Source: a virus. From it: a DNA stretch of 31,333 nucleotides. Under the pieces are notes generated by a model that saw only the letters and a program-made list of their open reading frames with translations, was not told where the DNA came from and made no database searches. The position numbers and the translations under genes are program-made. Each line of letters starts with the position of its first letter. Position 1 is the first letter of the stretch. Positions 12,640 through 20,193 of the stretch are shown one piece after another. The DNA is taken from IMG/VR virus record IMGVR_UViG_3300047550_007048. One strand, given 5' to 3'.

Positions 12640-13209
12640 TCATGCCATAAATGGTGAGAATCTCTCGACCGACTGTTTCCACGACAATGGATTGCCCGTC
12701 GTCCTGTCGTACAGGACGTAGCTCACGCACCATCTAGATTCGATGCTACTATTGACCATGTCATGCGGCACCCCGACCTGCACGAGGCTGGGGAATCCAA
12801 CCGAAGCTTCCCAGATCACCTGGCAACCCTCGTCCTCATATGTGATGCACTTGGTACCAGCGGAGGTGATCCGATCGATTGGACCTTTTCCGGAAGGTGG
12901 CGGGCGCCACCATCTCATCTTGCTGCCTGAACCACCGTAAACCCAGTTGAGCTTGCAGAGATCCTTCATCGTGTTGCCGTCGATGTGTATAGGCCTCCTT
13001 ATTCCGGGAAGGGAATAAAATACCTCCGCAAGTGGTATGGTGATGCCGAGGCCGTTTAGGAACCCTGTTATCCGCGGATCGAATCCATTGATCGGTATGG
13101 TCGCGTGCCATGAGGATTCCGGGGATCTGTCGACGAGGACCGGATCGAATGCCGGGTGCATGGTCGGATCAAATCCAAGATCAAGGTTCATGCAGAAAGG
13201 GTTCGTCAT
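12640..13209 (-). CDS. paralog 1 of an HxD...H...RxxxS family (putative Fe(II)/2-oxoglutarate-dependent oxygenase-like protein, 189 aa)
   Basis: IHIDG (HxD) ... GFPSLVQVGVPHDMVNSSIESRWCVSY (distal His, then Arg about 10 residues later, then Ser). Two upstream copies of CCGGATAAATAT. Confidence 0.55.
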   Translation of the reverse strand: MTNPFCMNLDLGFDPTMHPAFDPVLVDRSPESSWHATIPINGFDPRITGFLNGLGITIPLAEVFYSLPGIRRPIHIDGNTMKDLCKLNWVYGGSGSKMRWWRPPPSGKGPIDRITSAGTKCITYEDEGCQVIWEASVGFPSLVQVGVPHDMVNSSIESRWCVSYVLYDRTTGNPLSWKQSVERFSPFMA

Positions 13210-13213
13210 CTTC

Positions 13214-13245
13214 GTATATTTATCCGGTTACCGGATATTTATCCG
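13214..13245 (-). promoter_or_regulatory. two direct copies of CCGGATAAATAT(A/C)C, 6 and 24 nt upstream of the paralog-1 ATG
   Basis: Motif family member, duplicated. Confidence 0.5.
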
Positions 13246-13820
13246 GTTAGATGCGGGCCTAGACGGGAAACGGCATCCGGCCATTGCAGGTTCACATCCT
13301 TCTCCATCATTCCCAGCGTGTAGCTCACGCACCATCTGGTTTGATTGGTGGCATTGATGATGTTGTGTGGTACACCGACGTTTACCAGGCTTGGTTGGCC
13401 TATTTCAGCCGAATGCAGCATGGTGCATTCCGATTCATCGAAATCAAGGTATCTAGTGCCCTTCGGCGTGATCTTCGGGGATGCATTCGTTGCTTGGTGG
13501 TTTGGTTTCCACCATGCCATCCTGCTACCATTTGCACCGAATGCCCAGTTCAGCTTGCAGGCAGCGTCCATCACGCCACCATCGACATGTATCCTGGTCG
13601 TGGTCATCGGTCCGGTCCTAAAGATCTCTCCGAAGTTGATTCTTAGCCCGATGGTAGCAAGCCAGGCTGCTAGGTCCTTGTCGAAGTTGGCCCGATCTAT
13701 TATGAACTGGGAGAAGCCAACGGGAGAACCATTCGAAAACATGAACCTAGCAACCTGCTCCATGCCAATGTAGCAGGGTATGCTCGCGCGAATATGTAAC
13801 CCATTGATCATCATGCACAT
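13239..13820 (-). CDS. paralog 2 of the HxD...H...RxxxS family (193 aa)
   Basis: IHVDGGVMDAACKLNW...GQPSLVNVGVPHNIINATNQTRWCVSY. Aligns along its full length with paralogs 1 and 3. Confidence 0.55.
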   Translation of the reverse strand: MCMMINGLHIRASIPCYIGMEQVARFMFSNGSPVGFSQFIIDRANFDKDLAAWLATIGLRINFGEIFRTGPMTTTRIHVDGGVMDAACKLNWAFGANGSRMAWWKPNHQATNASPKITPKGTRYLDFDESECTMLHSAEIGQPSLVNVGVPHNIINATNQTRWCVSYTLGMMEKDVNLQWPDAVSRLGPHLTG

Positions 13821-13823
13821 TAC

Positions 13824-13964
13824 TGGCGGAACGGGAGGGATTCGAACCCTCGAGGGACGTTACCGCCCCTGCAGGTTTAATTTTGAACCCCGGAGAGTTG
13901 AACTCCTACCAAGCCTTGCTTGGGTCCCGCAAACCTGTGCCTTCAGCCGCTCGGCCACCGTTCC
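13824..13964 (-). tRNA. tRNA-Ser(GCT)-type class II gene interrupted by a 49-nt intervening sequence inside the anticodon (between nt 35 and 36); CCA encoded
   Basis: Acceptor GGAACGG/CCGTTCC with discriminator G. Ser-type D-arm GCCGAGCGGCTGAAGGC. Anticodon stem CAGGT...ACCTG separated by 56 nt (TTGC | 49 nt | TAA). 20-nt variable arm. T-arm GAGGG-TTCGAAT-CCCTC. Confidence 0.55.
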
Positions 13965-13975
13965 ATGTATCATAT

Positions 13976-14527
13976 TTAACGTATGTTTCGGAACTTTTCA
14001 AGAATTGATTTCATCTCGACCACGTTACCGTGGTCATTGGCGTCGATGCTGCGATCCATCCTGGTCTGCATCTTGGCACGCCTCTCTCCCATCGTCAGAT
14101 CAATGAGAGCGTTATTGAGTCCAAATCGATTATCAATCATCCTGGTGATCAGCCCGTTCGGCAGCAGTATGTCTCGCACGCTTTCAACGTGTCGATAAGC
14201 CGCTTCCGCATCCATGCCATGCTGGATCATTATTCCGATCGCGGCAGAGGTGCTGCGGCTAATGCCCTGGTGACAGTGTACCAGCAATCTATCCCCATCC
14301 TGCAGATCCTTAGAAAACTCCAGTATGGAGTCCAGATGATGCTCATTTGGCAGCACCCAGCTTTCCATCAGCTGGCTTTCGACGTCGTGGAGATGCAGAA
14401 CCAGATGATTTTCGCAGGAGAAGAGGATCTGTACCCCCGGGTCAACCATGCTTATGATGTGGGTGGGCCACCCGTTTTCTGCCCATCTCCCGGCCTCAAA
14501 AATGCCGCAAATCTTCAGCTCGAACAT
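13976..14527 (-). CDS. cysteine (CX5R) protein-tyrosine / dual-specificity-type phosphatase (183 aa)
   Basis: LVHCHQGISRSTSAAIGIM matches the HCxxGxxRS/T active-site motif. AGGAG SD upstream. Confidence 0.75.
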   Translation of the reverse strand: MFELKICGIFEAGRWAENGWPTHIISMVDPGVQILFSCENHLVLHLHDVESQLMESWVLPNEHHLDSILEFSKDLQDGDRLLVHCHQGISRSTSAAIGIMIQHGMDAEAAYRHVESVRDILLPNGLITRMIDNRFGLNNALIDLTMGERRAKMQTRMDRSIDANDHGNVVEMKSILEKFRNIR

Positions 14528-14627
14528 GTGACTCCTTGGAAGTACCGCAGGGTTTATGTGCTACCAGCGTTAGGTCTGCGAGCTGGGGGGATTTAACCAA
14601 ATGTTCCCCAAAGGTTCCTCGTGGAAA

Positions 14628-14702
14628 TGGCTCCGGCGGGTGGACTTGAACCACCAACCAACAGATTAACAGTCTGCTGCGCTACCATTGCGCTACGCCG
14701 GA
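14628..14702 (-). tRNA. tRNA-Asn(GTT), CCA encoded
   Basis: Acceptor TCCGGCG/CGCCGGA. D-stem GCGC/GCGC. Anticodon arm GCAGA-CTGTTAA-TCTGT. T-arm GGTGG-TTCAAGT-CCACC. Confidence 0.75.
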
Positions 14703-14928
14703 ATAGCTTGTTCCATAGCATGCGGTAAAATCCGCATGCTGTCAACCAGGGCGATGGACGTGATGCATGCGGGCAAAAACTCCCGAGCACCCCGTCCATC
14801 GAACGGACCATCCCGTGGTTTCTCGATCCGATGGACCTGCCAGGGCTGGCCGCGAACCAACCGCTACCTAACAGCCCTGATGGTTTCCATCATCCCGTTC
14901 CATTCTACAGGCGGGTCCCTGCCCGTGT

Positions 14929-19199: not shown

Positions 19200-19276
19200 T
19201 GGCTGGCCGCGTAGGACTCGAACCCACTACCTCCTGGTTCAAAGCCAGGTATTCTTGCCTGTTAAACTATCGGCCA
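19200..19276 (-). tRNA. tRNA-Gln(TTG), CCA encoded
   Basis: Anticodon arm CCTGG-CTTTGAA-CCAGG. T-arm GTGGG-TTCGAGT-CCTAC. Acceptor 6/7 paired. Confidence 0.65.
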
Positions 19277-19284
19277 ATGAATGG

Positions 19285-19361
19285 TGGCGCTCTCGGAGGG
19301 ATTCGAACCCCCGACCGTCGGTTTAGGAAACCGCCTCTCTATCCAGCTGAGATACGAGAGC
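19285..19361 (-). tRNA. tRNA-Arg(CCT) with doubled 3' CCACCA
   Basis: Acceptor GCTCTCG/CGAGAGC. D-arm GCTCAGCTGGATAGAGA. Anticodon loop TTCCTAA. T-arm GGGGG-TTCGAAT-CCCTC. Followed by ..G-CCA-CCA. Confidence 0.65.
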
Positions 19362-19366
19362 AAACT

Positions 19367-19441
19367 TGGTTGGCCCACCCGGTTCTGCCCCGAGGTCTTC
19401 CGGTTATCAACCGGGCGCTCTCCTAATTGAGCTATGAGCCA
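19367..19441 (-). tRNA. tRNA-Ile(GAT)-like with non-canonical T-loop GGCAGAA
   Basis: Acceptor TGGCTCA/TGGGCCA. D-arm GCTCAATTAGGAGAGC. Anticodon loop TTGATAA. CCA encoded. Confidence 0.5.
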
Positions 19442-19493
19442 TCAACTTGTTTTCTATTTATAAGGTACGGATCGCTGATCAGCAACCCATATG

Positions 19494-19570
19494 TTGGCGG
19501 CCCCGGGAGGATTCTAACCCCCATCCCCGGTGCTTCACGCCGGTGATCCAACAGTTGATCCACTAGGGCC
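19494..19570 (-). tRNA. tRNA-Phe(GAA)-like (loop GTGAAGC, T-loop TTAGAAT), CCA encoded
   Basis: Acceptor 6/7 paired. D-stem GATC/GATC. T-stem GGGGG/CCTCC. Confidence 0.45.
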
Positions 19571-19613
19571 ATGTTTCGTGCGACACCATGCGTCATGGTC
19601 GAAAGGCATTTCT

Positions 19614-19627
19614 GCCATAAATATCCG
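19614..19627 (+). promoter_or_regulatory. GCCATAAATATCCG motif ending 2 nt before ATG 19630
   Basis: Motif family member. Confidence 0.5.
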
Positions 19628-19629
19628 TG

Positions 19630-20193
19630 ATGACCAAAAACATCTATCATCGAAGGTTGCATCTCCCGAAAGGTGTGGATTTCACACCCAATCATCGGAT
19701 GGAGCAAGAACCAGCCGGTCGTTACAAGGTGATATCAGCCGACGACACACTAAACGGGGGGTTTTACTTTTGGTTGTTGTCCATGGGGCTTCGATGCACG
19801 GCGATCCGATTTTTCAGCAATCTGCCACATGCTAGGTATTCCATCCATGTCGATCAGGAAGCCTCCGCAATGAGAAACTGCACCTTCATGAATTTCCAGT
19901 ATGGGGGAGAGGGCAGCGAGCTCATATGGTACAAACCAATCGGCTTACCAACGACCATAACAAACATTTTTGGTGGCAGGATCGACACCTGGGAGCCAAG
20001 CAAGGTGATCGAGGTGCATCGCGCTTCCCTGGGATTCCCGAGCCTGGTAAACGCTGGGGTACCACATACCATGGTAAACGGATCAAAGCATAGGTATTGC
20101 TATAGCCTGGATATCTCGATCATGAAAGGCAATAGGAGGCTGGATTGGGACTCGGCGATGAGGATATTTTCCGGATTCATCATCCCGGAATGA
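19630..20193 (+). CDS. paralog 3 of the HxD...H...RxxxS family (187 aa)
   Basis: IHVDQEAS...GFPSLVNAGVPHTMVNGSKHRYCYSL. The only plus-strand member. ATG preferred over the GTG at 19627. Confidence 0.55.
   Translation: MTKNIYHRRLHLPKGVDFTPNHRMEQEPAGRYKVISADDTLNGGFYFWLLSMGLRCTAIRFFSNLPHARYSIHVDQEASAMRNCTFMNFQYGGEGSELIWYKPIGLPTTITNIFGGRIDTWEPSKVIEVHRASLGFPSLVNAGVPHTMVNGSKHRYCYSLDISIMKGNRRLDWDSAMRIFSGFIIPE

Follow-up and report, generated by a model that had tools for sequence, protein, structure and literature searches.

What is encoded by the three genes of about 190 codons that lie among the tRNA genes of IMGVR_UViG_3300047550_007048, an IMG/VR virus record? The window considered here is the whole 31,333-nt stretch of DNA from that record, and it is a dense tRNA island, with 42 tRNA genes predicted by ARAGORN, all on the minus strand, to which Rfam adds a few. 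An initial annotation, made from the letters alone, had described the three genes as paralogs of a novel family embedded in the tRNA array and as candidate 2-oxoglutarate (2OG)/Fe(II) oxygenases; the ARAGORN and Rfam predictions confirm that the genes are embedded in the array. We consider it likely that all three encode small (~190 aa), single-domain Fe(II)/2OG oxygenases, most probably hydroxylases, which are carried as accessory cargo of the tRNA-rich island. We infer that the proteins bind metal and 2OG, that their chemistry is that of hydroxylases, and that their substrates belong to the class argued for below.

Three paralogs and their predicted active site

The three open reading frames (ORFs), with two motif segments of paralog 2, are located as follows.

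12640..13209, minus strand: paralog 1, 189 aa, predicted Fe(II)/2OG oxygenase, with H75, D77, H149, R159 and S163
13239..13820, minus strand: paralog 2, 193 aa, with H78, D80, K89, N91, W103, H152, N156, R162 and S166
13581..13589, minus strand: codons of the predicted metal-binding motif H78-x-D80 of paralog 2, invariant in 115 and 153 sequences, at the end of model strand 77-80
13323..13367, minus strand: codons of H152...N156...R162-W-C-V-S166 of paralog 2, which include the distal His and the Arg predicted to bind 2OG
19627..20193, plus strand: paralog 3, 188 aa, with H74, D76, N89, W101, H147 and R156 (His+9)

The start of paralog 2 is one of the ATGs between 13811 and 13820, and that of paralog 3 is either GTG 19627 or ATG 19630. 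A full-length alignment was obtained for all three proteins, and pairwise BLASTP gave 37% identity between paralogs 1 and 2 (E 3e-40) and 33% between paralogs 1 and 3 (E 3e-21), values that place their similarity far above chance. Together with the ORF list, these results bear out the claim of three paralogous ORFs at these positions. Paralog 1 also matches the family hidden Markov model (HMM) at E 1e-65, and paralog 3 lies on the strand opposite to the tRNAs and belongs to a separate subfamily from paralogs 1 and 2. Among the motifs that had been read as common to the three, IH(I/V)D and G(F/Q)PSLV(N/Q)(V/A)GVPH do recur in every paralog; CKLNW is shared by two, with TFMNF at this place in paralog 3, and R(W/Y)C(V/Y)S, which had been put about 10 residues past the His, lies at that distance in paralogs 1 and 2 and at 9 residues in paralog 3.

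Conservation was assessed in alignments of 115 and 153 homologs, in which the mean column identity is 26%. In both, H78, D80, N91, W103 and H152 (paralog 2 numbering, used throughout) are invariant, and the HxD...H facial triad that they include is present in all three paralogs. R162, ten residues past H152 (His+10) and 98% conserved, corresponds in alignment to the Arg of AspH-like proteins, the basic residue of the last core strand. K89 and M101 (94% each), S166 (91%), N156 (90%) and F67 (at least 90%) are conserved nearly as well. At the sequence level the family signature is IHxD...K(L/I)N(W/F)...PSLV(N/Q)xGxPHxxxN...R(W/Y)CxS.

This layout appears nearest to that of the aspartyl/asparaginyl beta-hydroxylases (AspH) and of Cpz10, an alpha-ketoglutarate (aKG)-dependent beta-hydroxylase of caprazamycin biosynthesis (PDB 7V4M/7V4P). 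Local hhalign comparison of the family profile with seven AspH-like phage proteins, a representative of which matches PF05118 at E 7e-11, gave a probability of 81% and E 1.2e-5 over 104 columns. In the register of this alignment HxD pairs with HQD, K89 and N91 with R and H at +11 and +13, H152 with H, N156 with N (+4) and R162 with R (+10). Cpz10 was placed by its authors nearest to Asp/Asn beta-hydroxylases, with the triad H115/D117/H160 and the aKG-binding R170, which is also His+10 (PMC9814697). None of the three paralogs reached the gathering score of PF05118, and 2 of the 115 members matched it below threshold, at E about 0.05. These comparisons are suggestive of a sister group of the AspH/Cpz10-type beta-hydroxylases, not of a member of PF05118.

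AlphaFold models of paralog 2 (from 7 sequences; predicted local distance difference test 84, predicted template-modelling score 0.82; mainly beta) and paralog 3 (from 29 sequences; 87 and 0.84) have the same strand order. Both models are confident, and both contain the double-stranded beta-helix (DSBH) core of the superfamily, so that the fold on which the oxygenase proposal hung is the one predicted. In the model of paralog 2, HxD closes strand 77-80, H152 opens strand 152-156 and R162 opens strand 162-171; we take these to be the end of DSBH strand II and the starts of strands VII and VIII, which is where the triad and the 2OG-binding Arg canonically lie. By structure, Cpz10 is the best match. 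Other fold matches include 4iw3 and 4lit, bacterial 2OG oxygenases whose targets are EF-Tu and ribosomal protein L16, and viral collagen prolyl and lysyl hydroxylases. The candidacy as 2OG/Fe(II) oxygenases is thus supported by a triad and His+10 Arg that are near-invariant, by their register with AspH-like proteins, by the H160 to R170 spacing of Cpz10, and by the DSBH models.

In the mechanism we propose, His78, Asp80 and His152 would bind Fe(II), and Arg162 on the last core strand, with Ser166, would hold the C5 carboxylate of 2OG. Lys89 and Asn91 would sit where AspH-like enzymes carry Arg-x-His. Oxidative decarboxylation of 2OG would then yield a ferryl species, by which a C-H bond of the substrate would be hydroxylated. 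Given the AspH/Cpz10-like layout, the favoured substrate class would be an amino-acid, peptide or protein side chain, or an amino-acid-like metabolite, rather than a nucleic-acid base.

Several results weigh against this assignment. Scans of the three paralogs and 115 members with Pfam, PHROG, NCBIfam and PADLOC models gave no match above noise. Paralog 3 has a Phe in place of the Lys that is otherwise conserved in 94% of the family. Its model also matches the PDB only marginally in Foldseek (best E 1e-3, template-modelling score (TM) at most 0.38), and the list mixes P4H, AlkB and PHD2 with non-oxygenase cupins. From these marginal PDB matches we conclude that the family is a distant outlier of the superfamily, not close to any solved enzyme.

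A large family outside curated models

An exhaustive profile search retrieved 1,550 cluster representatives at E<=1e-3 and 131 at E<=1e-30. Family members are nearly all 175-200 aa, with a median isoelectric point (pI) of 6.1, and the homologs found in a large protein collection were all unnamed metagenome proteins without Pfam domains. Its novelty thus lies in its being missed by every curated model; some 1,550 unnamed homolog clusters do exist, and since the models miss them, current annotation pipelines call all of them hypothetical. Sequence searches of the PDB with 3-sequence and 115-sequence profiles were empty, and tblastn of two members against 50,697 GenBank phage records found no match. 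Megablast of 10 kb of the window against GenBank phages matched jumbo phages of Xanthomonas and Stenotrophomonas, and these only through tRNA-Ala similarity. Two scans of 185,579 species genomes found no cellular relative, but these scans were limited to particular peptide patterns and do not prove absence. The family is apparently restricted to viruses. Its closest viral structures are uncharacterized proteins of uncultured Caudovirales: the BFVD entries A0A6J5TBF2 and A0A6J5LJN6 match over their full length (E 1e-20 and 3e-18, TM 0.81-0.86, 23-24% identity) and probably belong to the same family.

Comparison with characterized enzymes underlines the distance. Cpz10 has 13% identity to the family and no sequence-level match; its two His are 45 residues apart and those of the family 74, it has a His two residues past the Arg where the family has Cys, and it is a bacterial protein from a secondary-metabolite cluster, whereas the family is found in phages. 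AspH proteins (PF05118) carry R-x-H in place of the family's K-x-N and differ in the N-terminal 55 residues, and genes of the AspH-like (PF05118) and PF13759 types adjoin family members in related loci. Proline 3-hydroxylase (1E5R) and L-proline cis-4-hydroxylase (4P7X) are 5-10% identical and, at 260-290 aa, have additional substrate-binding elements.

The closest parallel in lifestyle is with the 2OG oxygenases of T4-like cyanophages (PF13759, PF13640, TIGR02466; the Syn9 array), which are similar in size (~180-250 aa), occur as several divergent copies per genome and likewise group together in the hypervariable accessory parts of large aquatic phage genomes; in both groups the functions are predicted. 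A single T4-like cyanophage genome carries 1-24 divergent 2OG oxygenases; Syn9 has tandem arrays in which the dioxygenases number up to ten, and hot spots are described as lying 'near gp5 with tRNAs' (PMC3037559, PMC9964418, PMC2938197). Some phages of our set have 5-9 divergent family copies side by side; such clusters, at loci L009-L011, L013/L021, L017 and L070, contain highly divergent copies and resemble the tandem dioxygenase arrays of Syn9. The cyanophage models, however, match no family member above noise: PF13759 and TIGR02466 gave no Pfam or NCBIfam match, 1 of 115 members matched phrog_81 at E 0.008, and the structures of cyanophage and giant-virus 2OG oxygenases match at a TM of only about 0.45. 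Large aquatic phages hold many divergent 2OG oxygenases, and as the multi-copy case has already been described, the present family is a believable but fairly ordinary addition to them. Its signature allows members to be annotated and picked for biochemistry, and its steady residence in tRNA-rich islands helps to describe what such islands contain besides tRNAs.

The tRNA-rich island and the choice among substrates

The tRNA genes that flank the paralogs are the following.

12523..12598, minus strand: tRNA-Ala(UGC), 41 nt downstream of paralog 1
13824..13964, minus strand: tRNA-Ser(GCU) with a 49-nt anticodon-loop insertion (Rfam tRNA, 41.8 bits; aragorn -i)
19495..19570, minus strand: tRNA-Phe(GAA), 5' flank of paralog 3, divergent
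20228..20304, minus strand: tRNA-Leu(CAG), 3' flank of paralog 3, convergent

The syntenic contig L001 shares the order DSPc phosphatase, paralog, paralog, tRNA-Ala, SIR2, and encodes orthologs of paralog 1 (63% identity) and paralog 2 (53%). Since the two members of the pair are only 37% identical to each other, the duplication that gave rise to them predates the split of these phages. Paralog 3, whose closest relative (P0083) is 39% identical, and tRNA-Leu(CAG) jointly occupy the slot flanked by tRNA-Leu(GAG) and tRNA-Phe, where L001 has a 120-bp gap. In this history the tandem pair is old and the third copy, from the other subfamily, sits in a slot left empty in a related phage. Each gene is a compact unit, with an ATAAATA box just ahead of its start codon or with a tRNA directly abutting it, and we read all of them as cargo of the hyperplastic island of a large uncultured phage.

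Does residence among tRNAs indicate the substrate? The enzymes might act on the translation apparatus, with a phage tRNA nucleoside, a ribosomal protein or an elongation factor as substrate, and work together with the arrays; we hold this to be unlikely. Equally improbable, in our judgement, is its evolutionary form, in which a virus-restricted family has co-evolved with phage tRNA arrays and modifies a tRNA nucleoside, an aminoacyl moiety, a ribosomal protein or an elongation factor. Three IMG/VR scans yielded 73 loci on contigs of up to 453 kb, whose family genes fell into 53 clusters at 60% identity. The proximity to tRNAs that speaks for this reading is considerable: a tRNA lies within 100 bp in 18 of the 53 (34%), within 1 kb in 28 and within 4 kb in 42 (79%), and 32 (60%) are in loci with at least 10 tRNAs within 10 kb. 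On contigs of at least 100 kb, the family gene is in a tRNA-rich region in 11 of 14 (rough binomial p about 4e-6, p0=0.2). Both gene-tRNA orientations are seen, with gaps down to 4 bp. The flanking tRNA species vary by lineage (Ser/Trp, Ile/Met, Ser/Leu, His/Met, Arg/Leu, Phe and others), which argues that the proximity is not simple inherited synteny, and tmRNA in some islands, as well as the EF-Tu and L16 oxygenases 4iw3 and 4lit among the fold matches, is also consistent with a role in translation.

The proximity, however, is not peculiar to the family. As a control we took the non-focal ORFs of 26 non-redundant tRNA-rich loci. Of these 615 ORFs, 217 (35%) had a tRNA no more than 60 bp away, and the family copies among them (9/27) were no closer than the others (208/588; odds ratio 0.9, p=1). 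The family thus tracks a hyperplastic accessory island rich in tRNAs and shows no tRNA affinity of its own, and the suggestion that tRNA bases are the substrate finds no support in a linkage that exists at island level. Unrelated accessory genes share the island, among them a desaturase, radical SAM enzymes, HNH endonucleases and other oxygenases, and 10 of the 53 members have no tRNA within 10 kb. The proteins themselves also argue against this reading, with their median pI of 6.1, the lack of a nucleic-acid recognition lid or extra domain, and an Arg spacing that is AspH/P3H-like rather than AlkB-like. No published connection of oxygenases with phage tRNA arrays turned up in literature searches. 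If the substrate did belong to the translation apparatus, this would be a new kind of phage-host interaction, in which the takeover of translation by the phage includes an oxidative modification; on present evidence such a substrate is a minority possibility.

The window also raises the question of a virion surface protein as substrate: the collagen-like ORF product (30620-31333, plus strand), or a protein of tail-fibre type, would be hydroxylated ahead of sulfation or glycosylation by the sulfotransferases and sugar enzymes encoded nearby. Two sulfotransferases, FkbM-type methyltransferases and an epimerase are encoded in the window alongside the collagen-like ORF, and one of the sulfotransferases has homologs in a second family-bearing lineage. 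For bacteria, Iyer et al. 2010 (PMC2938197) described neighbourhoods in which 2OG oxygenases of beta-hydroxylase type occur with sulfotransferases and with collagen-like or tail-collar proteins, and predicted that hydroxylation precedes sulfation there. The fold matches also include viral prolyl and lysyl hydroxylases of collagen. The collagen-like substrate that the initial annotation had listed nevertheless fares poorly: Pro occupies the X position 31 times and the Y position (X-Pro-Gly) once, Lys never occupies the Y position, and the Thr residues at the Y position already bear a hydroxyl. The oxygenase genes are 10-18 kb away from this ORF, and the other 79 loci show no collagen-like ORF within 10 kb of family genes. 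We likewise rejected assignment to the collagen prolyl/lysyl hydroxylases of PF13640 type, as the proteins have no match to this Pfam P4H model and the collagen-like ORF offers one X-Pro-Gly and no X-Lys-Gly. A virion substrate is, in sum, distinctly unlikely. The collagen-like ORF is itself BclA-like, with GPT/GxT triplets, and runs off the end of the window; a tandem PPVYVA repeat is found at 28222-28257 (minus strand).

It is very improbable that the proteins mainly consume or sense 2OG to reprogram the nitrogen or carbon status of the host, or that they are non-catalytic binders of cupin type. Modulation of host 2OG has been proposed for the cyanophage 2OG oxygenases (Sullivan et al. 2010), and non-oxygenase cupins do appear in the Foldseek list. 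The strict conservation of N91, W103, M101, F67 and N156 and the many multi-copy subfamilies point instead to specific and differing prime substrates, and the full triad plus Arg speaks against a non-catalytic cupin.

The 2OG-binding Arg of AlkB lies further downstream of the His than +10. We regard it as extremely improbable that the family consists of nucleic-acid oxygenases, whether AlkB-like repair demethylases or TET/JBP-like base hydroxylases for DNA hypermodification, because the Arg predicted to bind 2OG stands at His+10, the proteins have an acidic to neutral pI, matches of this type rank below Cpz10, proline hydroxylases and AspH, the minimal 190-aa domain has no lid, no Pfam 2OG-FeII_Oxy_2 or TET match was found, and no cytosine methyltransferase or base-modification gene is adjacent. 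DNA bases, also listed at first as candidate substrates, are disfavoured by the same Arg spacing and acidic pI, which are unlike those of AlkB/TET-type enzymes, and membership in AlkB or TET-JBP, judged by family HMM match, nucleotide-recognition elements and a basic surface, was rejected. The reading that we prefer is still that of AspH/Cpz10-like hydroxylases carried in the island.

The ATAAATA box and other island genes

Two of the paralogs share a further feature with other genes of the window, a box immediately upstream of the start codon.

13217..13243, minus strand: two CCGGATAAATAT boxes (GATAAATA at 13217-13224 and 13236-13243), upstream of paralog 1
19616..19623, plus strand: CATAAATA box upstream of paralog 3, its end 3 nt short of GTG 19627 and 6 nt short of ATG 19630

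The window contains 16 copies of ATAAATA, where 1.5 would be expected (~10-fold). Without exception they share the strand of the gene that follows and stand 4-20 nt ahead of its start codon; the sites include 13217, 13236, 17444, 18844, 8128(+), 19617(+) and 28942(+). The proximal GATAAATA box ends 7 nt short of the ATG of paralog 1, and the distal copy overlaps the stop codon of paralog 2. No such box was found upstream of paralog 2, which abuts tRNA-Ser(GCU) instead. The earlier statement that two of the three genes carry the GATAAATA motif was thus roughly right, with two copies ahead of paralog 1 and CATAAATA ahead of paralog 3. In many other lineages the box stands 4-7 nt ahead of the family ATG, and the exact 7-mer is present in 19 of 53, where about 1 would be expected; it is conserved across divergent phages, including L014, L024, L033, L039, L040, L045, L051, L054 and L063. 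At this typical distance there is no room for a Shine-Dalgarno sequence. The late-promoter consensus of T4 and cyanophages is (T/N)ATAAATA. The box resembles this promoter, and such a role would imply leaderless or near-leaderless mRNAs; it may thus be a promoter for near-leaderless mRNAs or, alternatively, a non-Shine-Dalgarno initiation signal.

The tRNA-Ser(GCU) next to paralog 2 has its 3' end 3 nt ahead of the first ATG of that gene. Default ARAGORN missed this tRNA, and its 49-nt insertion, which is far too short for a group I intron, is kept in L001 (9847-9987) with few base changes. Other tRNA genes in the window are also irregular. ARAGORN predicts tRNA-Gly(UCC), tRNA-Gly(GCC) and tRNA-Lys(CUU) at 22704-22788, 22796-22881 and 23955-24038 (minus strand), and their length of 84-86 nt implies long variable arms, although tRNAs of these kinds ordinarily belong to class I. 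The segment 22707-22789 scored as tRNA-Sec (Rfam RF01852, 53.7 bits), although its anticodon is not UCA. Rfam alone predicts tRNA genes at 10729-10798, 18232-18306, 19370-19441 and 26936-27008 (minus strand), and aragorn -i proposes a putative tRNA-Pro(UGG) with a 164-nt intron at 25448-25686.

Among the unrelated genes that recur in the islands are an RNA polymerase omega/Rpb6-like ORF (13 of the 26 control loci), fatty-acid desaturases, AspH-like and 2OG-FeII_Oxy_5 oxygenases, HNH endonucleases, B12-radical SAM enzymes and QueC-like PP-loop ATPases. The omega/Rpb6-like ORF (PF01192) is the most recurrent tRNA-adjacent ORF, for example at L017 8020-8322 (minus strand) and L005 1774-2010. Transfer-messenger RNA (tmRNA) genes edge the tRNA arrays of L014 (3382-3798; 356-kb contig) and L015 (2197-2666; 117 kb), and in both contigs a family member sits between tRNA-Ser and tRNA-Trp. 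Candidate partners of the family were set aside on grounds of recurrence: no particular flanking tRNA species recurs across lineages, and the sulfotransferase, DSPc phosphatase and SIR2 genes recur only in the nearest ones. Within the window, the minus strand of the tRNA array also holds two paralogous dual-specificity phosphatase-like genes (13976-14527 and 21129-21629), a SIR2-family gene (11392-12204) and a radical SAM/SPASM gene (16222-17439). For the phosphatases and SIR2, synteny extends to L001 and L007/L018. At the edge of the window, an 834-aa ORF at 1-2505 (minus strand), which runs off its end, contains Major Vault Protein shoulder and repeat domains (PF11978, E 8e-20; PF17795), an unusual finding in a phage.

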